A DNA stretch of 64,000 bases from Minisyncoccota bacterium (lineage in GTDB: Bacteria > Patescibacteriota > Minisyncoccia > Phycocordibacterales > WO2-35-19), in assembly GCA_041664625.1 (NCBI GenBank), contig JBAYKK010000001.1, forward strand, positions 1,956 through 65,955. The letters are read 5' to 3'. The notes under the pieces were generated by a model. The model did not search any database and was not told the DNA's origin. It was given only the letters and a program-made list of their open reading frames with translations. Positions 22,195 to 39,925 of the stretch are shown here, piece by piece. How positions within the stretch are numbered: position 1 is the stretch's first letter; each line of letters starts with the position of its first letter. The position numbers and the translations under genes are program-made.

Positions 22195-22224
22195 TTATCA
22201 CTTAATTAATAATTAACAAAAAAT

Positions 22225-22491: not shown

Positions 22492-22499
22492 TCAAAATT

Positions 22500-22799: not shown

Positions 22800-22815
22800 A
22801 TAAAGTTAAAATTAT

Positions 22816-23025: not shown

Positions 23026-23029
23026 AAAC

Positions 23030-23936: not shown

Positions 23937-23959
23937 TTTTTTAATCAAATCAGAACGAT

Positions 23960-24484
23960 ATGAATCCAAAAATAAGACATCATGAAGAAAGTACGATAGT
24001 AGACATTTCTCCTATGAGACTTTTTGCGTACGTGGATGACCATGCCCGTTTTGCGTCACACATGAATAGTTCTTCTTGGATGATGGGCGGAGGACATATG
24101 AATACCCAAGTTGATACGGGGCGTGGCCAAAGAGTCGGTTCACATATACAAATGGACGGAAAAATTTTGGGCATTAATCTTTATCTTGATGAAGTTGTAA
24201 CGCAATACGAACCGCCTTATTTAAAAATATGGAAAACAGTTGGAGATATAAACCTCTTAATAATCGGCCACTATCAAATGGGTTTTAAAATAGAAGAAGA
24301 ACGTGGTAAGTCATTATTTACGGTGTTTATAAATTATAAACTGCCCCAATATATCGGTACTCGCTGGTTGGGATATTTATTGGGAGGAGTTTATGCGAAG
24401 TGGTGCGTTAAACAAATGCTTTCAGGCCCAACAAAATATTTTAATCATAATAACAAGAGACAAAATTATGGAACACAATCATAA
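23960..24484 (+). CDS. Hypothetical protein.
   Basis: ORF only. Its end overlaps the start of the ATPase gene. Confidence 0.3.
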   Translation: MNPKIRHHEESTIVDISPMRLFAYVDDHARFASHMNSSSWMMGGGHMNTQVDTGRGQRVGSHIQMDGKILGINLYLDEVVTQYEPPYLKIWKTVGDINLLIIGHYQMGFKIEEERGKSLFTVFINYKLPQYIGTRWLGYLLGGVYAKWCVKQMLSGPTKYFNHNNKRQNYGTQS

Positions 24485-26654
24485 TCCAATGAAAGAAAAA
24501 GATGGAATAATATACACCTGCCCCATGCATCCGGAGGTAAGGAAAACCGAGCCAGGCAAATGTCCAGGTTGCGGTATGGACTTGATTCCTGAAAAGAAAT
24601 CGGTAGGGGTTCACGCTGACCATGATATGCAAAAGATGAGCCATATGGATCATGAATCTGCCATGACAAATCCTCAGATGGCCAAGAAAATGGAAAAAGA
24701 TATGCGCCGAAGATTTTGGATTTCTTTCTTACTTTCCATCCCCATCTTTCTCTACTCCCCAGTCGGCATTAATTTCTTTGGGCTCAATCTGCCAACCCCA
24801 ATACCTATAAATTGGCTTCTCTTTATACTTACAACTCCGATAGTATTTTGGACCGGCTCGATCTTTATTACTGGTACCTACTACTCGCTCAAAGCCAAAA
24901 AACTCAATATGGCCGTGCTTATAGCCACCGGCGTTTTAGCTGCGTATCTTTTTAGTGTACTCCTCACTTTTATTCGACCGGGTAGCGAAACTTTTTATGA
25001 AGCGGCAGCTCTTTTAGTTACTTTCGTGTTGTTTGGCCATTGGATGGAAATGAAATCCCGCAGAGGCACTTCTGATTCGCTTAGGGCTCTTTTTGATCTT
25101 GTTCCACCAAAGGCAATTGTTATAAGAGATGGAAAAGAGTTGGTTATTTTAAGTTCCGAAATTATTAAAGGAGATATTGTTTTGGTAAAACCGGGTGACA
25201 AAATTCCGGTGGACGGCAAGGTTATTGAAGGAGAAACCAGTATAGATGAATCTCTCATTACCGGAGAATCAATTCCCGTAAGCAAAAATATCGGCGATGC
25301 TGTCGTTGGCGGATCGGTCAATATCACCGGGGTTATCAAATTTAAAGCTGAAAAAGTCGGTGCTGACACTGTATTAGCAAGCATCATTAAAATGGTTGAA
25401 ACTGCCCAGAACTCCAAAGCTCCTGGCCAGCGTATTGCCGATAAGGCGGCCGGATGGCTGGTAGTTGTAGCGATTGGCTCAGGGCTGGCCGCTTTTTTTG
25501 GCTGGTATGTATTCGCCGGCGCTGCTTTGATCACTGCTCTTACCTTTGCAGTCTCAACAGTGGTCATCGCGTGCCCTGACGCTCTTGGTTTAGCTACCCC
25601 TACGGCCGTTGCGGTGGGTACTGGAATAGGAGCTAAAAATAATATCCTTATCAAAGATGCGGCTACTTTGGAAAATACTTCTCGCCTAACTGCTATCGTG
25701 CTTGATAAGACCGGTACTTTAACTGAAGGAAAACCGAAAGTGACTGATGTTATTGCTTTCAATGGATTTACTGAAGATGAGATCATGAAATACGAAGCCA
25801 CTATTGAGTCCGGTTCCAATCATCCAATTGCCAAAGCTATTATTGACGAAGCAAAAAATAGAAATATTGAAATTGCTTCTCATCAAAATTTTGAATCAGT
25901 GGCAGGACACGGGCTAAGAGCGGTCATAGACGGCAAAAAAATATTAACTGGCAAAGAAAAACTATTGAATGATAATGGTGTTGATATAATAAAAGAAAGG
26001 ATTGTCTTTGAACGCTTGGCGAGTGAAGGTAAAACAGTCAGTATTTTGGCAGTTGACGGCAAAGTTGCCGGAGTAATAGCGGTAGCCGATACTATTAAAC
26101 CAAATTCCAAGAAAGCGATAGTTGCTCTAAAAAAATTAGGGCTTGAAGTCATTATGATTACCGGTGATAACCAGCGTGTTGCTCAAGGTGTCGCTAATGA
26201 GCTCGGCATAGACCGCTTCTTTGCTGAGGTCTTGCCGGAAGAAAAAGAAAACTATGTAAAAAAACTGCAAGATGAAGGGAAATTTGTGGCTATGGTTGGC
26301 GATGGTATAAATGACGCTCCCGCTTTGGCTCGTTCGGATATTGGTATTGCCATAGGAGCGGGTACAGACGTGGCTATTGAGACCGGCAATATTGTGCTTA
26401 TGAAATCCGATCCTTATGATATTGTGGCCGCCATTCGTTTAAGTAAAGCGACTGTCAGAAAAATGAAGCAAAATCTGTTTTGGGCTGCCATATACAACCT
26501 CCTTGCCATTCCAGTTGCGGCCGGGGCATTTTATAACTCGTTTGGGTTATCTCTTCGACCAGAAATAGCGGCGCTTTTAATGTCCGCTTCATCTATAATT
26601 GTCGCTACCAATGCTGTTTTGCTTAAAAGAGTGGAATCAAAATTAAAATTATAA
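24468..26654 (+). CDS. copA: Heavy-metal (Cu+-type) translocating P1B-type ATPase.
   Basis: N-terminal Cys cluster 'CPMHPEV..CPGCGM', TM 'CPC' ('ACPDALGLATP'), 'DKTGTLT', 'GDGINDAP' and 'MITGD'. Confidence 0.9.
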   Translation: MEHNHNPMKEKDGIIYTCPMHPEVRKTEPGKCPGCGMDLIPEKKSVGVHADHDMQKMSHMDHESAMTNPQMAKKMEKDMRRRFWISFLLSIPIFLYSPVGINFFGLNLPTPIPINWLLFILTTPIVFWTGSIFITGTYYSLKAKKLNMAVLIATGVLAAYLFSVLLTFIRPGSETFYEAAALLVTFVLFGHWMEMKSRRGTSDSLRALFDLVPPKAIVIRDGKELVILSSEIIKGDIVLVKPGDKIPVDGKVIEGETSIDESLITGESIPVSKNIGDAVVGGSVNITGVIKFKAEKVGADTVLASIIKMVETAQNSKAPGQRIADKAAGWLVVVAIGSGLAAFFGWYVFAGAALITALTFAVSTVVIACPDALGLATPTAVAVGTGIGAKNNILIKDAATLENTSRLTAIVLDKTGTLTEGKPKVTDVIAFNGFTEDEIMKYEATIESGSNHPIAKAIIDEAKNRNIEIASHQNFESVAGHGLRAVIDGKKILTGKEKLLNDNGVDIIKERIVFERLASEGKTVSILAVDGKVAGVIAVADTIKPNSKKAIVALKKLGLEVIMITGDNQRVAQGVANELGIDRFFAEVLPEEKENYVKKLQDEGKFVAMVGDGINDAPALARSDIGIAIGAGTDVAIETGNIVLMKSDPYDIVAAIRLSKATVRKMKQNLFWAAIYNLLAIPVAAGAFYNSFGLSLRPEIAALLMSASSIIVATNAVLLKRVESKLKL

Positions 26655-26658
26655 ATTT

Positions 26659-28263
26659 ATGAAAAATAAACTAACTATAGGAATCATTGCAGCCGTAGTC
26701 ATCATAGGTGGGATTGTCCTTGTACAAAGTCCGGACACTGGTAATAAAGTATTGGCTGGAAGTTTTTCTACTGATATAACCGGTCTGGCAGAAGCCAAAA
26801 CATCAGAGACTGTTGAGCTTAAAAACGGCGATACCTACGATCTCACGGCTTCAATTGTGAAGAAGATGATTGGCAACAGCGTGGTCAAAATGCTCGCCTA
26901 TAACGGCATGATTCCGGGACCCATGATTAAAGTGGAGCAAGGTGCGGAAGTAACACTCAATTTCACTAATAATACAGATGTTGACACCACGATTCATTCC
27001 CACGGAGTGCGACTTGATAATAAATTCGATGGCGTTCCAGACGTGACACAAAAAGAAGTTAAAACGGGCGAATCTTTCACTTATAAGGTCAAATTCCCTG
27101 ACGAGGGCATGTACTGGTATCACCCTCATATTCGAGAAGATTACGCACAGGAGCTTGGCCTTTACGGCAACTATCTTGTTACTCCCAATGATCCGAACTA
27201 CTGGTCTCCGGTCAATCGTGAAGTTGCGTTGTTCATAGACGACATCCTTATAGAAAACGGCAAGATTGCGACGTTTAGCAAAGCGTCTGCAGATCGCACG
27301 CTTATGGGCAGGTTCGGCAATACCATGCTTGTAAATGGCGAGATTGACTACACACTTCAAGCAAAAGCAGGAGAAGTAATCCGCTTCTATATCACGAACT
27401 CCGCGAATACAAGAACGTTTAATATCTCTATCCCCGGCGCAAAAATGAAACTTGTGGGAGCTGATGGCGGAAAATATGAACGCGAAACGTGGAGCGACGG
27501 TGTGGTTCTAGGCCCTTCTGAACGTACAATCGTTGAGGTGCTCTTTGCGAATTCCGGATCTTATATGCTTCAGCACAAAACTCCGAATCGTACTTATACA
27601 TTGGGAACGATTAATGTTACCAACGAGAAAGTAATTAATTCATTTGAGAAAGAGTTTGTGATACTACGTTCAAACAAAGACATGCAAGCGGAAATTGACG
27701 CATTCAGACCATTTTTCAATAAACCGGCAGATAAGCGTTTGAAGCTCACTATTGATATGGGTATGCAGATGCAGGGCATGATGCAAAACAATACCGGTGG
27801 CCACAATATGAATATGATGGGCGGCAATCAAATGATGCCCAACAGCGAAATGGTGGCTAGTGGCGATCCTATTGAGTGGGAGGAAAACAGTGCAACAATG
27901 AACGTTATGTCCAATTCTGAAATTATGAAATGGGTTATCCAAGACGAAGACACTGGCAAGAAAAATATGGATATTGATTGGAGCTTCAAAGTTGGCGACA
28001 AAGTTAAAATCAAAATCACCAACGATCCGAAGTCCGTGCACCCAATGCAACACCCTATTCACTTCCACGGCCAACGTTTTTTAGTACTTTCAACAAACGG
28101 CAAACCGAACGATAATCTTGTGTGGAAAGATACTACTCTAATCCCAAACGGAGATACAGTTGAACTTCTTGTTGAAATGACAAATCCAGGTGAATGGATG
28201 GCACACTGCCACATTGCCGAGCATTTGGAGGCAAGCATGATGTTTGGTTTTAAGGTTAATTAA
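26659..28263 (+). CDS. Multicopper oxidase with a Met-rich insert.
   Basis: 'HSHG', 'WYHPH', C-terminal 'HCHIAEHLEASMM', and the Met-rich 'MGMQMQGMMQ...MNMMGGNQMM'. Confidence 0.85.
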   Translation: MKNKLTIGIIAAVVIIGGIVLVQSPDTGNKVLAGSFSTDITGLAEAKTSETVELKNGDTYDLTASIVKKMIGNSVVKMLAYNGMIPGPMIKVEQGAEVTLNFTNNTDVDTTIHSHGVRLDNKFDGVPDVTQKEVKTGESFTYKVKFPDEGMYWYHPHIREDYAQELGLYGNYLVTPNDPNYWSPVNREVALFIDDILIENGKIATFSKASADRTLMGRFGNTMLVNGEIDYTLQAKAGEVIRFYITNSANTRTFNISIPGAKMKLVGADGGKYERETWSDGVVLGPSERTIVEVLFANSGSYMLQHKTPNRTYTLGTINVTNEKVINSFEKEFVILRSNKDMQAEIDAFRPFFNKPADKRLKLTIDMGMQMQGMMQNNTGGHNMNMMGGNQMMPNSEMVASGDPIEWEENSATMNVMSNSEIMKWVIQDEDTGKKNMDIDWSFKVGDKVKIKITNDPKSVHPMQHPIHFHGQRFLVLSTNGKPNDNLVWKDTTLIPNGDTVELLVEMTNPGEWMAHCHIAEHLEASMMFGFKVN

Positions 28264-28281
28264 AATTATAAAAATAAAAAT

Positions 28282-28914
28282 ATGTCATCAGCATCAGGTT
28301 ATGGAATGTGGGGATTGGTAGTATTAAATGTAGCGATTTTTCTTATATTCGCTTTCAGTTTTACTCATCCAAAAACAAAAAGAGATTGGCGATCATTCGG
28401 AGCATTTTCGGCATTTATTGTGGCGTTGTTTACAGAAATGTATGGCTTTCCGCTGACCATTTATTTTCTTTCCGGTTGGCTTACGAAATGGGTACCCGGA
28501 CTTGATCCTTTTACACACAACTCTGGTCATATTTTAGAAGACCTTTTTGGGTGGGGTGGCGATCCTCATTTTGGACCGTTCCATATTGCAAGCTATATTC
28601 TGATTTTTTACGGATTTAGTTTGCTTGCTAAATCATGGAAAGTTCTTTATGCAAGTCAGCGTGAACATACTCTCGCCACTACCGGCCCGTACGCTCGTAT
28701 CCGCCATCCTCAATATGTGGGATTTGTAACTATCATGTTCGGATTTCTTTTGCAGTGGCCTACTATACTCACGGTTATCATGTTTCCAATTCTAATATGG
28801 GTTTATACTCGCCTTGCTTACAGAGAAGAAAGAGAAATGCAAAAAGAATTTGGCGATGTTTACAAAAAATATTATGAACAAGTTCCCGCTTTTATTCCTA
28901 GGTTAAAAAAGTAA
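28282..28914 (+). CDS. Isoprenylcysteine carboxyl methyltransferase (ICMT)-family membrane methyltransferase.
   Basis: 'RHPQYVG' motif and TM helices. Confidence 0.55.
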   Translation: MSSASGYGMWGLVVLNVAIFLIFAFSFTHPKTKRDWRSFGAFSAFIVALFTEMYGFPLTIYFLSGWLTKWVPGLDPFTHNSGHILEDLFGWGGDPHFGPFHIASYILIFYGFSLLAKSWKVLYASQREHTLATTGPYARIRHPQYVGFVTIMFGFLLQWPTILTVIMFPILIWVYTRLAYREEREMQKEFGDVYKKYYEQVPAFIPRLKK

Positions 28915-28941
28915 AGTATGCTATACTTTTAGCAACCAAAT

Positions 28942-29349
28942 ATGAAATACATTGCAACGTTGATTTTCATAAGTTTTTTGGGATTAGCCGTATTTAGCAC
29001 TATGGCTCTTAATCATAGGATGAACGATTCTGTGGATAACTGCATAGGTTCTAAAGTGGATAACACTCCTTGCCCTACCAACTTAGTGGCAGCGGCCGCT
29101 CATCACATTTCCGTTTATCAAGCGATTTTCAATACATTTATACCTTCAGTTAGTAACTCTCTTGTTTTATTAACATTACTGCTCCTTGCTCTAGCATTTA
29201 TATCCTGGTCTGCCAAAGATCTTATCAGCGAGACTTCCCAACTTAAATTTTTACATCAAAGATTAAGAGATTTTGAATTAGTAAGACATAAAGCTAGACA
29301 AAGATTTGTCTCTTGGCTTTCTCTTTTTGAATTGAGTCCTTCTATATAA
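28942..29349 (+). CDS. Hypothetical membrane protein.
   Basis: N-terminal and central TM segments. Confidence 0.35.
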   Translation: MKYIATLIFISFLGLAVFSTMALNHRMNDSVDNCIGSKVDNTPCPTNLVAAAAHHISVYQAIFNTFIPSVSNSLVLLTLLLLALAFISWSAKDLISETSQLKFLHQRLRDFELVRHKARQRFVSWLSLFELSPSI

Positions 29350-29446
29350 TCCGGCACGAATTAGCCTAAGCTTTTTCGTGCTGTTCAATATCCCATCTCT
29401 GGGATATTTCTATTTACTACTAAAATTATTAGCTTACAGAAAAATT

Positions 29447-30316
29447 ATGGAAATTCTCGTAGGAACATCTCTCGTGGCGGCATTCGTGGCCGGAGTAGCA
29501 GCTCTGTTCGCTCCATGTTGTGTGTCTGTTCTTCTGCCGTCTTACCTTGGGAACGTATTCAAAGAAAAATACAAAATTTTCTTTATGACTTTTGTATTTT
29601 TCCTCGGTATGGCAACAGTTTTCCTGCCGATCGGATTGGGAGCATCAATGTTGTCTCAAACTTTCAGCAAATACCACAGCCAAATATTCACGGTTGGCGG
29701 TATATTCCTGATGGTACTTGGGATCTTTATGCTGTTCGGTAAAAAAATGACCACACCTGCTTCTGTTAGAGATGGTATGAAAAAGCATGTTTCGTCCATC
29801 TATGTCCTTGGAATATTCTCAGCTATCGCAACTACTTGTTGCGCTCCGGTATTGGCTGGAGTGCTGACTCTCTCGGTCGCTAGTGGCACAGTTATTTGGG
29901 GAGTGATTTATACCCTTGCTTACGTCTTGGGTATGACATTGCCCCTATTCATCATTGCTGCACTTCTGGACAAATACAACCTTACGGAAAAAATAAAGGG
30001 GGCGAAAAAGATTGTGGCTATGCGGCTCGGAAGCTTTAAGTGGAGGATTACGGTCTCTGAACTCATCTCAAGCCTAATCTTCCTCGCAATGGGCGGATAT
30101 ATCACGTACTTGGCTTTTGCCAATAAATTGACTATGCATCCGTCCGATTATCAGCTGCAAATGAACATATACAACGCCAAATTTCTGGGTGCTATTCAGG
30201 GCTATGTAAAAATAATTCCCGAATATATTTGGGCTCTGATCTTCGTATTGATCGTGTCGTATATGTCATTTGCGTTTATCAAACTAATTAAAAAACAAAA
30301 CAATGAAAAAATTTAA
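29447..30316 (+). CDS. Polytopic membrane protein, possibly DsbD/CcdA-like ('APCC' in TM1).
   Basis: Six to eight TM helices with a conserved Cys pair. Family assignment is tentative. Confidence 0.4.
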   Translation: MEILVGTSLVAAFVAGVAALFAPCCVSVLLPSYLGNVFKEKYKIFFMTFVFFLGMATVFLPIGLGASMLSQTFSKYHSQIFTVGGIFLMVLGIFMLFGKKMTTPASVRDGMKKHVSSIYVLGIFSAIATTCCAPVLAGVLTLSVASGTVIWGVIYTLAYVLGMTLPLFIIAALLDKYNLTEKIKGAKKIVAMRLGSFKWRITVSELISSLIFLAMGGYITYLAFANKLTMHPSDYQLQMNIYNAKFLGAIQGYVKIIPEYIWALIFVLIVSYMSFAFIKLIKKQNNEKI

Positions 30317-30959
30317 GGAATACATACCGCTTTTAACAGCATTCATGTTCGTTATTGGGGTCGGGGCACTCGGATTTATTTTGTATAAATCGGCTCCGCC
30401 CCAAACTGCCCAATCTGCGACAGCGACTAATGATATGTCCAGCCATCACAGCGGAGGGGCTGGAGCAGTGACGGATAATGGTCCGCTCAATTCTCTAATA
30501 GGCAAAGCATTGCCGGATATAAGTCTCCAAGATAAAGATGGTAAAACATACGCCAATGCCGACCTTAAGGGTAAATATACAGTCCTTTTCTTCAATGAGG
30601 GGCTCATGTGTTATCCCGGATGTTGGAACCAAATTGCTGCTTTTGGCAGTGACTCGAGATTCAATTCGGCCGATGTACAGGCTATATCTGTAGTAGTTGA
30701 TTCGGCCAAAGATTGGCAAAAGGCTATCGCCAAAATGCCTAAACTGGCTAATGCTAGAACTATGTATGACACAGGGGCGAGCGCCTCAAAACAGCTCGGT
30801 ATGCTCTCCACTGCTTCTTCGATGCATAAAGGATCACTGCCCGGACACACGTATGTTTTGGTCGATAAAGATGGAATCGTAAAGTACGTTTATGACGATC
30901 CTAATATGGCTATCGCCAACGATTCTCTCTGGGGCAAAATTCAGGAATTAAACAAATAA
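30303..30959 (+). CDS. Thioredoxin-fold (redoxin/TlpA-like) protein with a CxxC ('CYPGC').
   Basis: 'KYTVLFFNEGLMCYPGC' and an N-terminal anchor. Confidence 0.55.
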   Translation: MKKFKEYIPLLTAFMFVIGVGALGFILYKSAPPQTAQSATATNDMSSHHSGGAGAVTDNGPLNSLIGKALPDISLQDKDGKTYANADLKGKYTVLFFNEGLMCYPGCWNQIAAFGSDSRFNSADVQAISVVVDSAKDWQKAIAKMPKLANARTMYDTGASASKQLGMLSTASSMHKGSLPGHTYVLVDKDGIVKYVYDDPNMAIANDSLWGKIQELNK

Positions 30960-30964
30960 CAATT

Positions 30965-31456
30965 ATGGACAAAAAACCAACAATGGAGGAGCTTGTGGAA
31001 AAAATAAATAAGCTCAAAGCTACGGGCGAACTTGATCTCTCTATGGAGGAAGATTTGAGTATAGCCATTATGAATCTGATTAGTCTGGAAGAACATTTCT
31101 ATTTTACCGGAGAAAAAACCGGTAAAAGCGAATATTTTGATTTGCTGGGCGAAACCAGGGAAATCAGAAAACAGCTTCTAGCTAAAATGATTGACAAAAA
31201 CGAAGGAGAGACTTGGTGCATTACCAAACACTTACTCGCTACGACCATGAGGCTTATAGAGGTCGGTACCAAGCTTCAATCGTCCGGCAAAAAAGAAGAA
31301 TCGCAAGATATGTTCAAAAAAGCCTATCAAATTTACTCTCTCTTTTGGGGACTTAGGCTTAAACTCATAGATTTACCTGAATTGAAAGAAGTATCAGGCG
31401 AGCCAATGACAAAAGAAGATATTATTAGCAAATTAGTAGACTGTTGCAAAGAATAG
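30965..31456 (+). CDS. Hypothetical protein.
   Basis: ORF only. Confidence 0.35.
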   Translation: MDKKPTMEELVEKINKLKATGELDLSMEEDLSIAIMNLISLEEHFYFTGEKTGKSEYFDLLGETREIRKQLLAKMIDKNEGETWCITKHLLATTMRLIEVGTKLQSSGKKEESQDMFKKAYQIYSLFWGLRLKLIDLPELKEVSGEPMTKEDIISKLVDCCKE

Positions 31457-31475
31457 ACTACACATTAAAAGTAAA

Positions 31476-32477
31476 ATGGAAAATAAAAAAACTTTCGAAA
31501 TACCTACGCCTGTGGCAATTATTATTGCTGGAGCATTGCTTTCCGGTGCTTGGATGTTCAATAATTGGCTGAATCTTCCAGTCAACCAGCAGAAGACGAC
31601 TCTGGCCGCCCAAAAGAAAGTCCAGGTTCAATTATCAGATGCGGAAAAGAAAGTCATCCCCGCTGGGGGGGTGGAATTACCAGTGACTTGGGGAGAACTT
31701 GGGAAACAGTTAACTGATGTCGGGGTCATTGATAAAGAAAAATTCAAAAAGTTGTATGTAGATCGCCAAGAATGGAATGCTGAATACGATAAGCTTCTTT
31801 CTGGTAATAACACAGGAAAGATCAGGGTTACCCCTGAAAATTCACCGTTTCTATTGAACTTACTATGGGCACTCGGCTTAGCTCAAAACAATCCTATCTT
31901 GTTTGATAAAGAAGACATAATGAATCCTAAGTATGCCAACGGCAAAACTCCTGGTTCAACATTTGCTTCTACCGGAGGCTGGAATATGGCCGTTGGAAAC
32001 AGTATGGACCACTATGGGAAGCACACCTTCTTTAATCTCACTCCTGAACAGCAGGCATTGGTTGATAAAATTTCTCGTGGCGTATACCGACCTTGCTGCG
32101 GCAATTCAACTCACTTCCCAGATTGCAATCACGGTATGGCCATGTTGGGGCTTCTAGAACTCATGGCCTCTCAAGACGCAAGCGAGCAAGACATGTGGAA
32201 AGCGGCTCTCGCAATCAATTCATATTGGTTTCCTGACACTTACATCACCATTGCTTCTTACATGAAAGAAAAGAAGAATATAGAGTGGAAAAATGTTAAT
32301 CCTCAAGAAGTTTTGGGAGTAGATTATTCAAGCGGTCAAGGCTTTGCAAAAATTTCTGCGCAGGTGGCTCCAGTATCTGGATCAAGCAGAGGTGGCAGTG
32401 GATGCGGCATTAGTTCCGGCGCACCGGCAGAAACAGTGGCACAGCCACAGAGAAGACAGAGCGGTTGCGGATTATAA
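31476..32477 (+). CDS. Secreted Cys-rich protein, paralog A.
   Basis: Shares 'YRPCCGNSTHFPDCNHGMAMLGLLE' and a Gly/Ser/Cys C-terminal tail with 32501-33388. Confidence 0.5.
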   Translation: MENKKTFEIPTPVAIIIAGALLSGAWMFNNWLNLPVNQQKTTLAAQKKVQVQLSDAEKKVIPAGGVELPVTWGELGKQLTDVGVIDKEKFKKLYVDRQEWNAEYDKLLSGNNTGKIRVTPENSPFLLNLLWALGLAQNNPILFDKEDIMNPKYANGKTPGSTFASTGGWNMAVGNSMDHYGKHTFFNLTPEQQALVDKISRGVYRPCCGNSTHFPDCNHGMAMLGLLELMASQDASEQDMWKAALAINSYWFPDTYITIASYMKEKKNIEWKNVNPQEVLGVDYSSGQGFAKISAQVAPVSGSSRGGSGCGISSGAPAETVAQPQRRQSGCGL

Positions 32478-32500
32478 GATTAAAATAGCCACAATAAAAA

Positions 32501-33388
32501 ATGGAAAACGAACCAGAATATGGAATTCAAAGGCAGACGAAAAAATCTGGCGACAAGTTCATGTTACCAATCTCTATCGTTATTGCTGGTATATTGATTG
32601 CCGGAGCTGTTACGTATAAATCAGGAGCCATTTCGTTACAGTCGCTGACAGCCAAGCAAGCAGTTCAAAACAGGCAAGCAACACTTATCGATGGAGGAAA
32701 AATTCTACCTCTGGAACAGGAAAAGAAAATACTTGAAACTCTAATCGCTAACGGCACTATTGATCCAAACCAGCTTTCTGAAGTGTCTGAGCTTAATCTG
32801 CTTTGGGCATTTGGCTTGGCTAATAAGAATCAGATTCTTGAGAATGGACCGATAATGGATTCTAGCTATGGCGGACCGACAAACATGGCTTCGGTTGGAG
32901 GGTGGACTGTAACAACAGGATCAGTGATGGATCACTATGACAAACACTCTTTAGTGGCACTTACAGTTGATCAACAGGCTCTTGTTGAAAAAATTGCAAA
33001 GGAAATCTATAGACCTTGTTGTGATAACTCTACCTACTTCCCTGATTGCAACCACGGAATGGCTATGTTGGGGCTTCTTGAATACCTAGCATTCCAAGGA
33101 GCAACAGAAGAGCAGATGTGGAATGCGGCCATAACGGCCAATATGAGCTGGTTCCCTGATCAATATCAGACGATCTCCCAATATTTGAAGATAAAGGGTA
33201 TTGATATAAAGACAGTGACACCTCAAATGCTTCTTAGCGCAGAATATTCAAGCGGTTCAGGATTTACAAGGATTTCAGCTCAAGTTCCTCAAAACCTGCA
33301 GCAAAGAAGTAGCGGTGGTGGGTGTGGTGTGGATTCAGGTGGAACTTCGGCTACACCCCAGAAACAGCAAGGCGGATGTGGGATATAA
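32501..33388 (+). CDS. Secreted Cys-rich protein, paralog B.
   Basis: 'YRPCCDNSTYFPDCNHGMAMLGLLE'. Tandem duplicate of the upstream gene. Confidence 0.5.
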   Translation: MENEPEYGIQRQTKKSGDKFMLPISIVIAGILIAGAVTYKSGAISLQSLTAKQAVQNRQATLIDGGKILPLEQEKKILETLIANGTIDPNQLSEVSELNLLWAFGLANKNQILENGPIMDSSYGGPTNMASVGGWTVTTGSVMDHYDKHSLVALTVDQQALVEKIAKEIYRPCCDNSTYFPDCNHGMAMLGLLEYLAFQGATEEQMWNAAITANMSWFPDQYQTISQYLKIKGIDIKTVTPQMLLSAEYSSGSGFTRISAQVPQNLQQRSSGGGCGVDSGGTSATPQKQQGGCGI

Positions 33389-33418
33389 AATTATAAATTT
33401 AGATTAAACATTAAAATT

Positions 33419-34042
33419 ATGGACATTACGATTAGAGGTGACGAGCAAAAACCATCAAAAGCCAAAGGATCAAGGTTGATTATTATCTCCGTCAGCGCCG
33501 CAATAATAATTCTCCTTGCCAGTCTCCAATTCTCAAGAGGTCTGCTTGTAGCGGCAACCGTTAATGGTAGCCCCATAAGCAGATGGGCAGTAATAGGAAA
33601 TTTGGAAAAGCAAGCTGGCAAACAGGCACTTGATTCTTTGATCACTGAAAAATTAATTGAAAGCAAACTGGGTGAAATATTTGTTTCTAAAGAAGAAATA
33701 GACGGCGAAATTAAAAAAATTGAGCAACAGGTTACTTCTCAAGGAGCAACCATGGATGCGGCTCTAAAGCAGCAAGGTATGACAATGGAACAGCTACAAG
33801 ACCAGATAACGATGCGAAAAAAGCTTGAAAAATTGCTGGCTGATAAAGCCCAGATATCGGATGAAGAAGTGAACACCTACATTAAAGATAACAAAGTTAC
33901 ACCTAAAAATGGCGAAAAGCCGGAAGATTTCAAGGTTCAAGTTAAACTGGAATTACAACAGCAGAAGTTTGACCAAGTAGCTGGGCAATGGATGAGTGAT
34001 TTAAAAACTAACGCAAAAATAAATTATTATGTAAATTATTAA
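33419..34042 (+). CDS. SurA N-terminal-domain-like chaperone protein.
   Basis: TM anchor followed by a helical domain typical of SurA_N. Confidence 0.45.
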   Translation: MDITIRGDEQKPSKAKGSRLIIISVSAAIIILLASLQFSRGLLVAATVNGSPISRWAVIGNLEKQAGKQALDSLITEKLIESKLGEIFVSKEEIDGEIKKIEQQVTSQGATMDAALKQQGMTMEQLQDQITMRKKLEKLLADKAQISDEEVNTYIKDNKVTPKNGEKPEDFKVQVKLELQQQKFDQVAGQWMSDLKTNAKINYYVNY

Positions 34043-34105: not shown

Positions 34106-35935
34106 TCAAAACTCTCCCAAAATTCCTTTCAATTTAGTCTCATGGTCTCGAATACCAGCATCGTCTGGTTCAATTGAATCAATATCGATAATAAAATTAT
34201 CCTCAAAATGCAGGATCTCTTTTTGCTTGAAAATGCCACGTCTAGTTTTCTTTAGGTCATCTTTGGCTGCGTTGGTAGCGATCAAAATCGATTCGTTATA
34301 TAGCCTAATACAATCCTTTAAAAATTGTATCCTCTCGGCCACATGATAGGTAAAATCGGTCTCGTAAATTTTGACTAGTCTCTTGAATAGTTTTTCAAAA
34401 GCCAAAAGAGCGGCATAATTTTTAATCAGATTTTCTCGTCTTTCCTTAAACAATTTGTAAATCTGTTGGCTCCTGAACTTTATGATCGCTTTTCCATCCT
34501 CCCGCTCCTCTTTAAACACAGATTGTCCCTTGTGAATATTTGAGAGAAGGGTGATTGAGAGACCATAAACACTGAAAATATTTGGTTCACCCTTGCCGTT
34601 GTGGTCGCAGATAAGAAATTCTCTGTCCAGGTTTTCTCCATTTTCAGGATCGTCATTGGTATAAACGATGCCTAGATTTGGATCATATTTATCTGTTCTT
34701 TCTCTGAATTCTTTAACGAATTTGTAATCTGCTTTTAAATTATATAAACTTTTGCCAGTTATGACAGAGCCATCAAATGTCTCAAAGCATACTCTTTCGT
34801 CGGCTTCGCACTTAATTGGTTCGAGGCCGGCATTCTCCAGAACTTTGCGAGCGTTTTCAAGCTCTTTGTCGTATAAACCTTTGCTGTACAATTTTTCATT
34901 TCTGGTTTCTCTCTCGCTTCTCTCGCTCAATTTCAATTCTCCTTTTTTGACGTGATCTAGTAAAATTTTTCTGGCTTCCTTTTTAATCTCAAGCCACCTT
35001 TGGAAAAGATCGAAGCTATTACTCAAAACAAGAGGGGTATAGTCATCAAAGAGCCCATCATCGAACCACTTGAGGCAAGCTTCCTTTAGCATAGCTTTTA
35101 TATTTGTGTCGTTTTTGGTCGCGTACTCTTCCATTAGTTTAGAGACCTCTTCGTAGGTATTGCTCTGCTCATCATCAGCTTCTTGATTTTGAGACATGGA
35201 CTTGCCCTTAATTTCAATTCCCTTGTCTTTCAAAAAATATCTGGCAACTTCGGTCAGAGGGATGCAAGCGAAATAATGATAGAGCTGGTATTCGTGGGCA
35301 AATTTGTTGTAACTTTGCTCAGCCACCAGCTCTGCCAGTTTTTCTTTGCCGTCTTGGTTGAGTTCATCTTTGTCGCCAAAGAGATTGGCGATAATTTCCT
35401 CTTGATCTAAATACTGGTGGTCATATTCAATTTCAACATACAGCTCCTTAAGTTGCTCTTTTTCCGCTTCACTTAATCTTTCGAGAGCTAGTTGGTACAC
35501 AGCATAATCAAAATCAATTCCTTCTCGCAGCTTCATTTGTTTTTGCTTTTCGGCAATTTCCGCGGCTTCTTCAATGGTGACCATCTTTGTGCTCTTCAGG
35601 TTTTCGATGTACCTTTTCATTTCTCGGTGAGCTGGATATTGGGCCATGTCGGTAAGAATGGGAAGTTGAGCAAGGTATGCGGTCTGGCCGTCTTTGAAAT
35701 GGAATTCGACTTCGATTTCCATCCTACCTACATGTTTCCAGCCTTCATTCATACGGTTCCACTCTTTGGCTTCCCAGTTCTCTTTTGACTCCCAATTTTC
35801 AAGAGCCGCTTTATCGGCAGGAGTGAGAGATTCTTTTCCCGTTCTTTCTCTTTGGATGTCGTTTTGAATGAGGAGAATATACCTCTCCTTTGGAGTTAAG
35901 TTACTTCGGCCCAACATATTTGAAATATTTTTCAT
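34106..35935 (-). CDS. Large hypothetical protein (609 aa), Glu/Lys-rich with coiled-coil character.
   Basis: Long ORF with no P-loop or other recognisable motif. Confidence 0.5.
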   Translation of the reverse strand: MKNISNMLGRSNLTPKERYILLIQNDIQRERTGKESLTPADKAALENWESKENWEAKEWNRMNEGWKHVGRMEIEVEFHFKDGQTAYLAQLPILTDMAQYPAHREMKRYIENLKSTKMVTIEEAAEIAEKQKQMKLREGIDFDYAVYQLALERLSEAEKEQLKELYVEIEYDHQYLDQEEIIANLFGDKDELNQDGKEKLAELVAEQSYNKFAHEYQLYHYFACIPLTEVARYFLKDKGIEIKGKSMSQNQEADDEQSNTYEEVSKLMEEYATKNDTNIKAMLKEACLKWFDDGLFDDYTPLVLSNSFDLFQRWLEIKKEARKILLDHVKKGELKLSERSERETRNEKLYSKGLYDKELENARKVLENAGLEPIKCEADERVCFETFDGSVITGKSLYNLKADYKFVKEFRERTDKYDPNLGIVYTNDDPENGENLDREFLICDHNGKGEPNIFSVYGLSITLLSNIHKGQSVFKEEREDGKAIIKFRSQQIYKLFKERRENLIKNYAALLAFEKLFKRLVKIYETDFTYHVAERIQFLKDCIRLYNESILIATNAAKDDLKKTRRGIFKQKEILHFEDNFIIDIDSIEPDDAGIRDHETKLKGILGEF

Positions 35936-36171
35936 ATTTTTCTCTTTTTTAACATCTGTTCAAGAAATTCGACCCGGTCTTTGAGGTCTCTGACTTCTAT
36001 AAGTTTAGATAACGCCAAAGCCAAGCGGGAAATAGTGGCTGCCCGACGCAAAGAAGTTTTTCTCTCAGCCACATCCTGCAAAGTCTCTGAAAGAATGGCT
36101 GCCGCCTCTTCAGCACTCATGTAATTTTTCTTTTGTAAATCTTTTTCGTCCATATTTTTACATTCCTTCAA
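35932..36171 (-). CDS. Hypothetical small protein.
   Basis: ORF in the same orientation as its neighbours, with overlapping stop and start codons. Confidence 0.35.
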   Translation of the reverse strand: MKECKNMDEKDLQKKNYMSAEEAAAILSETLQDVAERKTSLRRAATISRLALALSKLIEVRDLKDRVEFLEQMLKKRKI

Positions 36172-36547
36172 TTATTTCCATCCAAGCTTTGACCTCGGCA
36201 GCCCTGCCGGTTTTGGTAGCTTCGCGATACAGAGCAGAGACGACATTTGGAGTTAGCTTCTTGGCCCAGGAATGGATAGATTTCATAAGGCCACCTGATT
36301 TCTCAATCCTCTTGTTCCATTCGGAAAGAGTGCCCAAATCCTTGATTCCAAACTTCTTGGCAAACTCTGTTTGGTTTTTAATTTCCAAAAGAGACATCGC
36401 CAGCTCGTCATCCACACCCAATTTTTCGACCACATGCCTCGGCTGTCCGCGCAGGATAGAAGGCATCGATCGCCAAAGAACATAGGATTCAAATTCCTGT
36501 TTTTTGTAGATGGTCGCATATTTTGAGTTATCATCCTCGTCTGGCAT
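36158..36547 (-). CDS. Hypothetical protein, possibly a phage small-terminase or HTH-like protein.
   Basis: ORF. The resemblance is weak. Confidence 0.3.
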   Translation of the reverse strand: MPDEDDNSKYATIYKKQEFESYVLWRSMPSILRGQPRHVVEKLGVDDELAMSLLEIKNQTEFAKKFGIKDLGTLSEWNKRIEKSGGLMKSIHSWAKKLTPNVVSALYREATKTGRAAEVKAWMEIIEGM

Positions 36548-36557
36548 ATAACTTGGG

Positions 36558-37340
36558 TCATTTTAAAATTTCAGCTTTTTTGTCGCTGAGTTTCTCCCAC
36601 CTTTCGACTATGGTGTTGCAATACGACTCCTCCATCTCAATCGCAAAACACCTTCGACCAAGATGTTCGCAAGCGATCAAAGTTGAACCCGATCCGGCAA
36701 ATGGATCAAAAACTATATCTTCTGGCTTGGTACTGTGGTATACGAGGCGACGCAATAGAGCCGGTGGCTTCATGGTTGGATGCAACTTGCTTTTGTGTGG
36801 TTTGGGATAGAAGAGGGCGGTTTTGTCTCGGTTACCGAAATATTCGTGCCTGCCGTACCAGCCATATATGATGAGCTCATGTTGGGGATGAAAATCTTTG
36901 CGGCCGACTATGTGATTGTTTTTAAGCCAAATGAGAAGAGAGGATTTGGTGTAGCTAGTGTCGTGTAGAGCATTCAAAAGTTCTCGCAACTTCATGTCAC
37001 TGTTGAAAATATAGAAGGCATTTTTGTCTTTAAGATATGGCCTCATCGGTTCAAGCCATTTTTTACAAAAACTATAATAATCCTGCTCAACCTCGTCTCC
37101 TTTTATGGCCGAGAATTTTTGATTGCTATTATCCTTATGAATTTTCTCCAAAAATTCCTGCTTGCCTTCGACGTAGCCAACTCCGTACGGGGGATCTGTT
37201 AAAACCAGAGTCGCTTTTTCTTTTTCAAAAAGCTGTTTTACATCCTCCACTTTTGTAGAGTCTCCAAGCATGAGCCTGTGCTCACCAAGTTTCCAGATTT
37301 TAGTTAAGTTTTTTTGCATGGTTGCCGGTGAAATGCTCAT
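36558..37340 (-). CDS. DNA methyltransferase of the N6-adenine/N4-cytosine class.
   Basis: 'LVLTDPPYGVGY' (motif IV) and 'FDPFAGSGST' (motif I). Confidence 0.8.
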   Translation of the reverse strand: MSISPATMQKNLTKIWKLGEHRLMLGDSTKVEDVKQLFEKEKATLVLTDPPYGVGYVEGKQEFLEKIHKDNSNQKFSAIKGDEVEQDYYSFCKKWLEPMRPYLKDKNAFYIFNSDMKLRELLNALHDTSYTKSSLLIWLKNNHIVGRKDFHPQHELIIYGWYGRHEYFGNRDKTALFYPKPHKSKLHPTMKPPALLRRLVYHSTKPEDIVFDPFAGSGSTLIACEHLGRRCFAIEMEESYCNTIVERWEKLSDKKAEILK

Positions 37341-38562
37341 AACGTCGAATGATGAGGTCGCAAAATGTCGGGTCGAGTTCGACCAAAAACGCTCGCCGCT
37401 TTAACTGCTCTGCCGCAATTAAGGTACTGCCACTGCCACCGAAGAGATCGAGGATAATTTCGCCGGGAGCAGAGCATCTTTTTATTGGTTTCTCATTTAA
37501 GGTAATTGGCTTTTGAGTTGGATGCTCGTAATCAGCAGAGTTGTCTCTCTTTACCAGCCAGAGTTGGACAATGCTCATGAGATCATCGTATAGGCCGATT
37601 GAGTTCACTTCTTTGTTTAGAACTTCGGATAGATTTTTAAGAGCCGGATTCAGAGAGGGAGTGCCTCGAGTGCCGTAAATGCAGGGCTCGATGACTTTGT
37701 TAAAAGCTACTTGTGGTGTTGGGTCAAAGTTATTTTTAACCCAAAAACAAATTCGGCGGTTGGTGACTTTATTCTGCCCGTAAAGTTGCTGGATTAGCCA
37801 GACATATTTTTCGTCACACCAGTAGAAGAGGTGGACATCGGGGTGGCTTACTGCTAGAGCATTTTGTATCGACTGTTCCAAAAATGTCTCGTACTCCTTG
37901 GCACTCTTGCTGTCATTCACCATTTTTTCAGGCGTATATTTTCCTTTGGAGCCAATGCCTTTTCTATAGTCCAAACCAATGTTATATGGTGGATCGCAGT
38001 ACACCATATTGGCTTTGTGCTCTCCCATGAGCTTCTGCACATTTTTCAAATCAAGGCAGTCTCCACAAAGAAGTCTGTGGTCTCCAAGTTCATACAGGTC
38101 GCCTGGCTTGCTTTCAGGAGTGACAATTTTTTCGAGTTCCTCTGCAACATTAAAATCGTCGTCTGTTATATCTAACACATCATCAAAAAATCCGTTAAGC
38201 TCGTCGGGAGTGAAGCCGACATCAAGGAGAAGGCCGGTATCAAAAGCTCTTAAAAGTTCCTCATCCCAGCTGCCCAAATTTTTGTTGAGCCGTAGGTTTA
38301 ACTCCTGCTCTCGCTCAAGCTCTGGAATAATGAGGTATACAACAGGCACTTCTGTAAAGCCCATCATTTTGGCGACCTTAAGGCGAAGGTGACCACCGAT
38401 CAGGATATTTTTTCTTTCTGGCGCACCATTCACTATTAGGGGATCGCATAGGCCAAATCGCTTTATACTCTCGGTCATATCGGCGATTGTTTTCTCATTC
38501 CATTTTCTGGGATTGTAGACCGAGGGTTTTAATTCACTCACTTTAACTTGTTCTATTTTCAT
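37300..38562 (-). CDS. ParB-like nuclease domain fused to a DNA methyltransferase.
   Basis: N-terminal ParB/Srx fold ('IGGHLRL'), then 'DPPYNIGLDY' and 'LDLFGGSGST'. Confidence 0.8.
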   Translation of the reverse strand: MKIEQVKVSELKPSVYNPRKWNEKTIADMTESIKRFGLCDPLIVNGAPERKNILIGGHLRLKVAKMMGFTEVPVVYLIIPELEREQELNLRLNKNLGSWDEELLRAFDTGLLLDVGFTPDELNGFFDDVLDITDDDFNVAEELEKIVTPESKPGDLYELGDHRLLCGDCLDLKNVQKLMGEHKANMVYCDPPYNIGLDYRKGIGSKGKYTPEKMVNDSKSAKEYETFLEQSIQNALAVSHPDVHLFYWCDEKYVWLIQQLYGQNKVTNRRICFWVKNNFDPTPQVAFNKVIEPCIYGTRGTPSLNPALKNLSEVLNKEVNSIGLYDDLMSIVQLWLVKRDNSADYEHPTQKPITLNEKPIKRCSAPGEIILDLFGGSGSTLIAAEQLKRRAFLVELDPTFCDLIIRRYEHFTGNHAKKLN

Positions 38563-38638
38563 AAAATTGGGTTAATTTTTAATTGTTTCTTTAATAATGC
38601 TTACTTGCGACATATAGTAACTATTTTAGGCAAAAAAA

Positions 38639-39172
38639 TTAGAATGATATCCCGGGCATCATGCGGAAGGGTAAATCGAGGTGTTCAAGCTGAATCCTGG
38701 CTACTGGTTTGGACACTCGGAACAATTTGGCGATGTCTTCAACAAATGGAAATGGTTCGTATTGATACACGTTTCTAACTGCCGGTTCCGGCATCAAAAT
38801 ATCCCCGGCAAAGCGGTCGCAGAGTCTCTCTACCCAACTATCATTGTCATCGGAATGGTACATTATGGCTGGTTCATTTGGAACGAGTACAATGTGAGCC
38901 AGTTCATGAGCGGCGGAGAATCTTTGCCTGACGATGCTTTCGTTTCCGTTAAGTATGATGAACCAACCTCTCTCCATGTCTCGGGTAGAGAAGGCGGAGA
39001 CTCCTTTCTCGAATGGAAAATCGGTCCTCGAGTGAACTTCTGCATCGCCCAAGTACTTGGTTATAACCTCCTTGATCACCACCGGAAGATTCAAAGATTC
39101 GCCATATACCTCTTTCAGTATCGCGTTGGCTTTATATTTAGAAACGTTTTTCCATTGCTCCGGGATCTCCAT
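38639..39172 (-). CDS. ImmA/IrrE-family metallopeptidase.
   Basis: 'AAHELAHIVL' HExxH motif in the DUF955 context. Confidence 0.7.
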   Translation of the reverse strand: MEIPEQWKNVSKYKANAILKEVYGESLNLPVVIKEVITKYLGDAEVHSRTDFPFEKGVSAFSTRDMERGWFIILNGNESIVRQRFSAAHELAHIVLVPNEPAIMYHSDDNDSWVERLCDRFAGDILMPEPAVRNVYQYEPFPFVEDIAKLFRVSKPVARIQLEHLDLPFRMMPGISF

Positions 39173-39178
39173 TGTCTT

Positions 39179-39520
39179 TTACTTAACTTTTAATTCCTTC
39201 TTGAGGTAGCCGATATAGTTTTCCACCATTTTCGACTGCTCCTCATTGAAGTTGTATTTGGCTCGGAGGAAGGTCGGGGTATCGGCCGATTTGATATAAT
39301 CCTCTTGAGTGATGCCCGCTTTGTTCAAAATGAATTCAAGCGGCTCACTTAACCCATCAGCTATTTTTCTTAATGTACTTACCGAGGGTGACTCATCTGG
39401 GTACTCACCTTGCTCTAAGCGGGAAATGTAGCCTCTGGTTAAACCAGAATTTTCGGCCAATTTCTCCTGCGTTAGTTCCTTATCCTCGCGCAAACTTTTT
39501 ATGACCTCAGCTAATTTCAT
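39179..39520 (-). CDS. XRE-family helix-turn-helix transcriptional regulator.
   Basis: 'QEKLAENSGLTRGYISRLEQGE'. Confidence 0.8.
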   Translation of the reverse strand: MKLAEVIKSLREDKELTQEKLAENSGLTRGYISRLEQGEYPDESPSVSTLRKIADGLSEPLEFILNKAGITQEDYIKSADTPTFLRAKYNFNEEQSKMVENYIGYLKKELKVK

Positions 39521-39849
39521 ATTTTTTCCTATTATTACTTTTCTATTCTAAGTCGACTGGAGATAGTATAGCATAAGTCGCTAAGATGTGAAGTATAGTT
39601 ACTATAAAAGTTGTGGATAACTGATTGTTTTTCATATCACAAAACAGAATTTAGCATTTGTCCAGAAAACCCAAAAGAATTTTGGCCTGTGCCAAAGTAC
39701 CTTTATTTTGCTTCATTTTCCGAATTTACTCTTTCACAGATTTGGCATTGTTTGGGTTTTCAAGACCCCGACCCGAACACTTCAATTCCACTTCTGGAAA
39801 TGTGCTAAAATACCCTTATGGTTACTAACCTAATGGGTACTTAACCCGA

Positions 39850-39925
39850 ATACACCGCCTTCGGTCCGCAGTAGCAGACCTTCGGCGTGACGAAGTCCGC
39901 CAGAAGGGGTGCGAAGGCGACCTTA
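39850..39925 (+). other. GC-rich multi-stem element directly upstream of the GIY-YIG gene.
   Basis: CGCCTTCG at 39861 pairs with CGAAGGCG at 39912, and an inner hairpin GACCTTCG-gcgtga-CGAAGTC sits between them. Confidence 0.35.

Follow-up and report, generated by a model that had tools for sequence, protein, structure and literature searches.

What kind of genetic element is represented by seven consecutive, co-oriented genes that, in an uncultured, ultra-small member of the Minisyncoccota (GenBank assembly GCA_041664625.1), place a repressor and a metallopeptidase next to two DNA methyltransferases (MTases) and three proteins without recognizable domains? The genes lie on the minus strand, at positions 39520-34106 of the window, that is, the whole stretch of 64,000 nucleotides that was analyzed (contig JBAYKK010000001.1, positions 1,956 to 65,955). 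The original prediction, made from the sequence alone, described them as a prophage-like block, namely, an early or anti-restriction region of a phage or, alternatively, a methylation-based defense module similar to BREX (bacteriophage exclusion) or DISARM (defense island system associated with restriction-modification). Comparison with related loci indicates that the block is the left arm of an integrated mobile island of ~22.7 kb (window ~17186-39858), and that one of the three proteins, of 129 aa, is a homolog of the terminase small subunit (TerS). The architecture of the island is firmly established; as for its life style, including its mobility and helper dependence, we infer that it most likely is a phage satellite that is switched by the XRE/ImmA-type pair, methylates its own DNA and is packaged with parts of a helper phage, a reading that we favor with modest confidence.

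The gene block and its island

The seven genes were recovered at the positions, and with the domains (here by Pfam), originally described:

39179..39520, minus strand: XRE-family helix-turn-helix (HTH) repressor, 113 aa (HTH_3 in Pfam, E = 4e-13; PADLOC CapH, 1e-9)
38639..39172, minus strand: ImmA/IrrE-type M78 metallopeptidase, 177 aa (PF06114, 1e-14; HELAH motif; PADLOC CapP, 7e-18)
37300..38562, minus strand: fusion of a ParB_N domain (ParB-CTPase fold) with a beta-class N6/N4 DNA MTase, 420 aa (PF02195, 7.5e-10; PF01555, 1.7e-26; phrog_498, 4e-101), hereinafter ParB-MTase
36558..37340, minus strand: beta-class N6/N4 DNA MTase, 260 aa (PF01555, 1.8e-35; phrog_498, 2e-74; DPPY and FAGSGST motifs)
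36158..36547, minus strand: 129 aa TerS homolog, by homology to genes adjacent to the terminase large subunit (TerL) gene in the viral contigs L051 and L052
35932..36171, minus strand: 79 aa protein if the first TTG is taken as the start codon (73 aa with the ATG chosen by gene callers)
34106..35935, minus strand: 609 aa protein, the last core gene

The two MTase open reading frames (ORFs) overlap by 41 nt (37300-37340), the stop codon of the 79 aa gene overlaps the start codon of the 609 aa gene in ATGA (35932-35935), and the overlaps in this part of the operon suggest that the 129/79/609 aa trio is translationally coupled. None of these three proteins has a significant match in Pfam, PHROGs, PADLOC or NCBIfam. 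Nevertheless, the ORFs of the block are real genes, given that the 609 aa protein has 251 homologs at E<=1e-3 and the 129 aa protein has 161. All named homologs of the block proteins come from Patescibacteria, or the candidate phyla radiation (CPR), namely Yanofskybacteria, Adlerbacteria, Taylorbacteria, Paceibacteria and Minisyncoccia.

The first 30 loci carrying the core were obtained by exact-protein look-ups and a scan of the GTDB species genomes, and more were added later. In ~35 CPR loci (tblastn), the order ParB-MTase, MTase, 129 aa, 79 aa, 609 aa is retained wherever enough sequence is available; altogether, the five intact core genes are found in this order in >200 genomes, with up to 87% identity. 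Excluding the closest relatives of the window, L006-L008 (75% for the 609 aa protein and up to 94% for the 129 aa protein), the identity to the window is 74-82% for the ParB-MTase, 66-78% for the second MTase, 73-87% for the 129 aa protein, which is the most conserved of the core proteins, 59-77% for the 79 aa protein and 43-56% for the 609 aa protein. A divergent clade (L005, L024, L026) shows 48-50% identity for the ParB-MTase, 44-47% for the MTase, 62-64% for the 129 aa and 52-66% for the 79 aa protein. Because the high conservation of the ParB-MTase and the 129 aa protein extends across Yanofskybacteria, Adlerbacteria, Taylorbacteria and Minisyncoccia, the core appears to have spread horizontally among CPR lineages.

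The originally suggested check for co-occurrence of the block with the serine integrase in other genomes was positive. Recombinase orthologs with 55-70% identity, co-oriented with the core, are located downstream of it in L001/L022, L012, L015, L016, L019, L024, L027 and L030, and recombinases of other lineages occupy this place in L003, L005 and L034. The distance between the 609 aa gene and the recombinase gene is 15.5 kb in the window and 0.2-8.5 kb elsewhere, and what lies between them differs from locus to locus:

L001, L015/L044 and L016: reverse transcriptase (RT) with bAvd, and AAA_5 with VWA
L027: complete type I restriction-modification (R-M) system
L034: type III R-M system and AAA_15
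L012: ResIII helicase and RT
L024, L030 and L005: no cargo
L006: ABC transporter after the 609 aa gene, no recombinase within the sequence covered
L043: PemK and NUDIX/HD genes after the 609 aa gene, no recombinase within the sequence covered

Together, the fixed gene order, the downstream recombinase and the variable cargo imply a mobile island that has the core and the recombinase as its backbone and, between them, a slot for cargo. The membership of the block in a mobile element, as originally proposed, is thus upheld; as for the block taken as a unit, the co-oriented genes are real but they are only the left arm of an island that reaches as far as the recombinase. At the recombinase end of the island, we identified the following features:

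17078..17163, plus strand: tRNA-Ser(GGA), a host gene (ARAGORN, Rfam), with the 3' end toward the recombinase end
17186..17215: conserved arm just beyond the recombinase gene (minus-strand sequence GGTCGC...AAGnAA...GGnC), common to the window, L001 and L016
17235..17269, minus strand: terminator-like hairpin and T-run directly after the recombinase stop codon, read from the sequence
17276..18604, minus strand: large serine recombinase, 442 aa, the predicted island integrase (PF00239, 1.5e-19; PF07508, 1e-13; PF13408, 2e-8)

The recombinase is encoded on the same strand as the block and combines the Resolvase, Recombinase and Zn_ribbon_recom domains, that is, all three marks of a large serine recombinase; the nearest NCBIfam model is CcrB, below the cut-off (117 vs 900 bits). 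The stop codon of its gene is 113 bp from the tRNA-Ser, and the recombinase faces a tRNA 3' end in the window (Ser), L001 (Arg) and L005 (Gln) and a tRNA-like T-arm in L016. The tRNA-Ser thus positioned would mark a tRNA-proximal insertion site, and the conserved arm, with the tRNA 3' end ~20 nt beyond it in the window, L001 and L016, is the probable recombinase-side end of the element (attR region). At the opposite end, ~340 bp upstream of the XRE gene, hereinafter the leader, are conserved among the loci, and in seven leader copies the similarity begins abruptly at (T)GCGG…TCGGGTTAAGTACC, with unrelated outer flanks. Because the similarity among independent copies stops there, we place the regulator-side end of the mobile DNA at window ~39858. 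The genes of the right flank are cellular (GIY-YIG, EamA, NTPase, tRNA-Val). Two candidate terminal repeats were rejected: a 14-15 nt direct repeat (17220 / 39600), considered as an attachment (att) site, lies inside the conserved leader and has equivalents in other loci only at chance level, and a terminal inverted repeat (CGGTGT...) scored 13/20 against a shuffle mean of 13.7.

A terminase small subunit homolog at a conserved position

The 129 aa protein contains an HTH-like segment with a weak match to HTH_28 (Pfam), and its AlphaFold2 (AF2) model consists of eight helices (pLDDT 75). Two viral contigs connect this protein to phage packaging genes. The 39 kb contig L051 encodes a 153 aa homolog (hhalign 99.96%, E = 4e-39, 53% identity) whose gene (7968-8429) overlaps the start of a TerL gene at 8389. 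The 466 aa product of the latter is a terminase large subunit (PDB 5oea, E = 7e-7; 357 matching phage records), and directly after it follows a gene for a 674 aa protein in the portal position (9843-11867) that matches an annotated portal protein and also a protein of the TM7 phage DolZOral124_53_65, a match that identifies phages of this type as CPR-infecting and makes them candidate helpers. In L052, a 91 aa ORF separates the gene of the homolog (1936-2382; hhalign 98.8%, E = 9e-17) from a downstream TerL of a different family (1249 matching phage records). Among the listed annotated phage hits of these two TerL proteins, most are named 'terminase large subunit', and there are PDB terminase hits as well. 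On the basis of homology and conserved position, and not of a match to a curated TerS model, the 129 aa protein is classified as a TerS homolog.

The position itself is informative. Two sister elements, L046 (12.8 kb), which shares the leader with the window and encodes a related serine recombinase, and L055 (13 kb), which ends with a recombinase 55% identical to that of the window and carries R-M cargo, including a Dam-type and a second MTase, and no structural genes, encode a ParB-MTase/MTase pair 43-51% identical to that of the window. In the slot that is occupied by the 129/79/609 aa trio in the window, both have an unrelated TerS and a verified TerL. Homologous ParB-MTases (43-56% identity, a range that includes L046 and L055), usually accompanied by a second MTase, are also encoded in L056-L066, which are sister elements or viral contigs, and an unrelated TerS-like gene follows the ParB-MTase in at least seven contigs besides L046 and L055. 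The complete terminase that the sister elements have in this slot connects the slot with DNA packaging. The 609 aa gene takes the place that the TerL gene has in these elements, and its product is unrelated to TerL; in the comparison with L046, neither the 129 aa protein was homologous to its TerS nor the 609 aa protein to its TerL (hhalign probability about 0.1%).

Other virion genes are missing. The search for them covered 623 kb, comprising the window and 37 core-carrying loci, where six TerL, one annotated portal and three portal/capsid-position queries produced no match; a phage TerS query matched 38 loci in the same set. In the annotated contexts of the core loci, no Pfam domains of TerL, portal, capsid, tail or lysis proteins were detected. 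The IMG/VR contig L050 has the full island architecture, with a recombinase 68% identical to that of the window, and likewise shows no structural genes in the 16 kb covered. Hence the earlier statement that capsid and terminase genes are not evident stands at the level of motifs and, for capsid-position homologs, in the 623 kb searched, but not for the terminase as a whole, one subunit of which has a homolog in the 129 aa protein.

The 79 aa protein is small, helical and coiled-coil-like and is found in every locus with 52-77% identity. The 609 aa protein was originally described as lacking any recognizable domain, and this holds for profile searches, which found no match in Pfam, PHROGs, PADLOC, NCBIfam or PDB sequences, as well as for the structure: the AF2 model (pLDDT 83), mostly helical and without a Walker A motif or P-loop, has no Foldseek match in PDB or BFVD. 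The family is small, with only 231 cluster representatives found in an exhaustive search of 1.84e9 representatives with a hidden Markov model (HMM). Its distant members contain no Pfam domain; those of ~496 aa in L031 and L034 retain the same architecture, and one very distant relative adjoins ParA. A pattern scan of IMG/VR and tblastn searches of the INPHARED phages and PLSDB plasmids were all negative for this family; a divergent relative (497 aa, 23% identity) was later found in L050. The partner gene in the distant locus L032, considered as a relative of the 129 aa gene, turned out to be unrelated.

Switch, leader and methyltransferases

The XRE gene adjoins the gene of an M78 peptidase with the HExxH motif (HELAH), an arrangement of the ImmR/ImmA or CapH/CapP type; the NCBIfam match of the XRE protein is RstR-like, below the cut-off. 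The pair precedes the core in most loci, either co-oriented with it, as in the window, or divergent, and is replaced only in the divergent clade, for example, by a primase-polymerase/helicase gene in L005. In ICEBs1 (ImmR/ImmA; PMC8960796) and in CapH/CapP systems (10.1101/2022.04.27.489752; PMC13228613), genes for an XRE-type repressor and an M78 peptidase likewise head the operon that they control; unlike in those systems, the operon under the predicted switch of the island is neither a conjugation module nor a known defense system. The interpretation of the pair as the head of a switch is supported by the good promoter behind which it lies. The region upstream of the XRE gene contains:

39565..39592, minus strand: predicted operon promoter, with -35 TTCACA, a 16 nt spacer and TG-extended -10 TATACT (10/12 matches plus TG)
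39612..39620, minus strand: TTATCCACA box (DnaA-box consensus), ~20 bp upstream of the -35 element, a candidate operator or host-factor site
39681..39696: palindrome TTTGGC-N4-GCCAAA; the leader contains several GCCAAA boxes, of which this is one
39735..39858, minus strand: conserved outer leader unit, (T)GCGG..TCGGGTTAAGTACCC, a variable hairpin tip, then TAAGGGTATTTTAGCACATT .. CTCGGGTCGGGGT

The -10 region is conserved among the loci. The TTATCCACA box is found, exactly or with one mismatch, at a fixed distance of 84-100 bp from the XRE ATG in 8/10 loci, and is in the same position in L006, L009, L012, L018, L020, L025 and L030. The GCCAAA boxes are also overrepresented in the leader of the window (3 observed vs 0.74 expected), and tandem copies phased at 10 bp are present in L021, L025 and L003. 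The outer leader unit is a candidate att, packaging (pac) or replication origin (ori) region, and a scan of metagenomes with a 34-base leader pattern yielded four further leader copies. The possibility that the leader is an RNA gene was considered and found unsupported: the stem sequence of its hairpin is invariant, with only two covarying pairs, both in the tip (RNAalifold), the z-score of the whole-leader fold is -1.8, and there is no Rfam match at E<=1.

Three further observations concern the leader and its surroundings. The outer unit lies at ~470-600 in L047 and ~293-400 in L048 (motif on the plus strand), with unrelated genes on either side. L045 and L047 have identical leader units and different outer flanks. 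Just beyond the island edge, window positions 39856-39920 contain a GC-rich hairpin cluster with CUUCGG-type loops (fold z-score -3.2), which is unique in the window, has no Rfam match and is located upstream of a 77 aa GIY-YIG gene (39932-40165).

Both MTases have motif IV before motif I (DPPYNIGLDY then FGGSGST in the ParB-MTase, DPPYGVGY then FAGSGST in the 260 aa protein), that is, (D/S)PP(Y/F) before FxGxG within PF01555, as in beta-class N6/N4 enzymes. With both motifs retained, the loss of motif I or IV that might have inactivated them is ruled out, and both apparently are active. The closest NCBIfam models of the two proteins are adenine MTases of the CcrM type, and the 260 aa MTase is probably adenine-specific. 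Homologs of the ParB-MTase are present in 152 phage records, with ~33% identity to the versions from cultured phages, and in both cultured temperate phages that were inspected, the gene is directly upstream of TerS/TerL. Fusions of ParB_N and MTase domains are enriched in prophages (PMC12704722), and those of temperate phages (phrog_498; PMC12704722) show the identical domain fusion at the identical place directly before the packaging genes; in contrast to the phage versions, the fusion in the island precedes a TerS homolog without TerL.

Life style, alternatives and cargo

The combination of an integrase, a repressor switch and an own TerS, without TerL, capsid and tail genes, matches that of phage satellites, and it is the TerS homolog that points to such a life style rather than to a phage or a defense operon. 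Under this scenario, in the integrated state XRE would repress the promoter with the TG-extended -10 element until a signal (DNA damage or single-stranded DNA, or a product of the helper phage) causes the ImmA-type protease to inactivate XRE. Once the operon is on, the two MTases would methylate the DNA of the element, which would protect it against restriction upon entry into the next cell (the ParB_N domain might serve as a DNA-loading clamp), and the recombinase would excise the island. The TerS homolog would recognize a site in the element, for which the conserved leader is a candidate, and recruit the TerL and capsids of the helper for packaging, and the coupled 79 aa and 609 aa proteins might serve as accessory hijacking factors, acting as an adaptor of TerL, redirecting the capsid or scaffold, or initiating replication. 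After the transfer, the recombinase would integrate the island beside a tRNA gene and thereby deliver the cargo: copper resistance in the window and R-M systems, retroelements similar to diversity-generating retroelements (DGR-like) or MoxR/VWA genes elsewhere.

Among the known elements, the closest parallels are the phage-inducible chromosomal islands and Staphylococcus aureus pathogenicity islands (PICI/SaPI) and other TerS-carrying satellites (PMC10085698, PMC6739421) as well as the marine VEIMEs (integrative mobile elements encapsidated in virions; PMC9618062), which also are tRNA-adjacent integrated islands with an integrase at one end and a master repressor. Like PICI/SaPI-type satellites, the island has its own TerS homolog, lacks TerL, capsid, tail and lysis genes and carries accessory cargo, often involved in defense. 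Unlike these, it has a large serine recombinase instead of a tyrosine integrase, no recognizable AlpA or pri-rep module, a switch that combines XRE with an ImmA protease, two MTases, and ORFan 79 and 609 aa proteins in place of the Ppi/Cpm/Rpp-type hijackers; it differs further in size (8 to 23 kb) and in the host phylum, Patescibacteria. Serine and tyrosine integrases are treated as exchangeable by SatelliteFinder (PMC10085698).

Large serine recombinases have been described in other mobile islands. The PLEs of Vibrio (elements resembling phage-inducible chromosomal islands), satellites that parasitize a lytic phage and supply a replication initiator of their own, likewise encode one, and no common core genes with the island were detected. 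PLEs are the only reference satellites with such a recombinase (PMC9618062). In staphylococcal cassette chromosome (SCC) elements, a large serine recombinase similarly moves an island, the cargo of which is exchangeable, into a fixed position, namely the 3' end of a housekeeping RNA-related gene; unlike SCC, the island lacks the cch and polA-type core genes, its recombinase scores far below the cut-off of the CcrB model, and the target and host differ.

Several observations weigh against the phage-satellite interpretation. The 129 aa protein has no TerS match in Pfam, PHROGs (including member-by-member scans) or NCBIfam, its AF2 model has no Foldseek match to a TerS fold in PDB, the comparison of its profile with PDB sequences was negative, and the TerS role of the reference genes in L051 and L052 is itself deduced from position only; given the high diversity of TerS families, the missing match to a curated model lowers the confidence in the TerS assignment without excluding it. 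Because the 609 aa protein lacks a known fold and is not an ATPase, the key hijacking step is a guess. PICIs normally have a replication module, and no primase, helicase or Rep domain was found in the element of the window; the replication gene is restricted to the variant L005, and the origin-like leader of the window is merely suggestive. The outer ~100-130 nt of the leader are also present in L047 and L048, which lack the core genes; accordingly, a part of the leader may be host DNA, and the unit could be either an att/pac/ori end common to several types of elements or a host target locus. The size of the element varies, from about 8 to 23 kb. No empty site was recovered: look-ups of the proteins in the flanks led to nothing but short contigs or the very organism that bears the island. 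Finally, the ends of the island show no significant direct or inverted repeats, which is not unexpected since the att sites of serine recombinases share little sequence.

The element belongs to a known kind; what is new is that this variant occurs in a new phylum and encodes three conserved proteins of no described family, one of which is assigned as a TerS homolog. In full-text searches, we found no paper on phage satellites in Patescibacteria/CPR or on this island family, and a survey of these bacteria lists genomic islands only generically (PMC12455944). CPR bacteria account for a large share of bacterial diversity and have tiny genomes, and gene exchange among them is poorly known; the present analysis defines a recurrent island family with clear marker genes and >200 members, in which R-M systems, DGR-like retroelements or copper resistance occupy a defined cargo slot and the TerS homolog provides a link to CPR phages. 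If the island is indeed a phage satellite, the range of satellites would extend to a new phylum, the three conserved ORFan proteins would acquire a testable role in the hijacking of packaging, and L051-like phages would be nominated as helpers. A bolder version is conceivable although doubtful: this would be the first CPR phage-satellite family, a parasite of phages whose bacterial hosts live as episymbionts themselves, with a new hijack device in which the TerS homolog and two proteins of unprecedented fold, placed in the TerL position, redirect the motor or capsid of the helper, a ParB-clamp MTase pair pre-methylates the DNA, and the islands are a main vehicle of defense and metal resistance in these reduced genomes. 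The large serine recombinases with their tRNA-proximal sites might also be of interest to genome engineers.

The best surviving alternative, which we consider rather unlikely, is an integrative island that requires no helper, where the TerS-like protein has been co-opted as a DNA binder for excision (directionality) or circle replication, the 609 aa protein is an initiator acting on the leader (the TTATCCACA box and GCCAAA iterons), and transfer occurs by natural transformation, vesicles or cell contact. No helper phage has been identified, the leader is origin-like, with a DnaA-box consensus and 10-bp-phased GCCAAA repeats, a primase-polymerase/helicase gene heads the core in L005, and the very distant 609 aa relative is located next to ParA, all of which would fit such an island. 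So would the affinity of the recombinase to CcrB, the SCC recombinase, given that SCC elements are not packaged by a terminase of their own. However, the 129 aa protein is clearly homologous to a TerL-adjacent gene in two phages, the corresponding slot of the sister elements holds a complete terminase, and the 609 aa protein shows no feature of known initiators.

An improbable explanation is that the operon is a methylation-based anti-phage defense system, similar to R-M or BREX, that rides on islands: the MTases would mark self, the 609 aa protein and the two small proteins would constitute a new effector, and the XRE/ImmA pair would be a DNA-damage-responsive regulator of the CapH/CapP type. 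The best PADLOC hits of the regulators are indeed CapH (1e-9) and CapP (7e-18), pairs of this type control many defense operons (10.1101/2022.04.27.489752; PMC13228613), and islands elsewhere often carry defense cargo. Nevertheless, no PADLOC model matches the 129, 79 or 609 aa protein, the last of which has no nuclease, ATPase or helicase feature, and, with their promoter repressed, the MTases would fail to protect the host genome. The more specific suggestion of a BREX/DISARM-like module fails because PADLOC yields only generic MTase_II and regulator hits, with none of the respective components (PglZ, BrxC, BrxL, DrmA/B/C helicase, DUF1998, PLD) in the block or its neighbors. Moreover, the operon is always at the same end of the island and in the same orientation relative to the recombinase, and is the sole content of the cargo-free L024, L030 and L005, so it behaves as backbone and not as cargo, and one of its products is a TerS homolog. 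Least probable is a decaying prophage that has lost its structural genes: the XRE/ImmA pair, the ParB-MTase (phrog_498) and the TerS homolog are phage-typical, but the same five intact genes recurring in order in >200 genomes are not expected of random decay, cargo differs between close relatives (e.g., the window and L006), the flanks and cargo of the window are cellular or copper-resistance genes, and none of about 35 related loci has a structural gene, which also removes the original option of an ordinary prophage early region.

The cargo of the window includes these features:

18747..34042, plus strand: cargo slot with a ~15 kb copper/thiol-redox cluster (Pfam; small ORFs)
21254-21526, plus strand: CsoR-like repressor
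21529-21738, 22012-22194 and 22816-23025, plus strand: three YHS/TRASH-type small proteins
31476-33388, plus strand: two paralogous Cys-rich proteins of 333 and 295 aa, without a Pfam domain

In addition to the CsoR-like repressor and the three YHS proteins, the cluster encodes DsbA-like, DUF3105, Cu P-type ATPase, multicopper oxidase, ICMT, DsbD and AhpC proteins, a SurA_N-like protein and small His/Met-rich membrane proteins, and by these domains it is predicted to be a coherent copper/thiol-redox resistance cluster. In other islands, the RT recurs in the cargo slot (L001 11896-13308; L044, which is the same as L015, 11902-13336; L012 18079-19128; L034 8353-9468; L050 11968-13038), and in L001 and L044 it directly follows the 609 aa gene together with bAvd (DGR-like). 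Immediately past the recombinase, L044 contains a type I R-M system (16440-21848) that encloses a Shedu-like (SduA_C) gene, and the insertion site of this island may be a defense-island hotspot.

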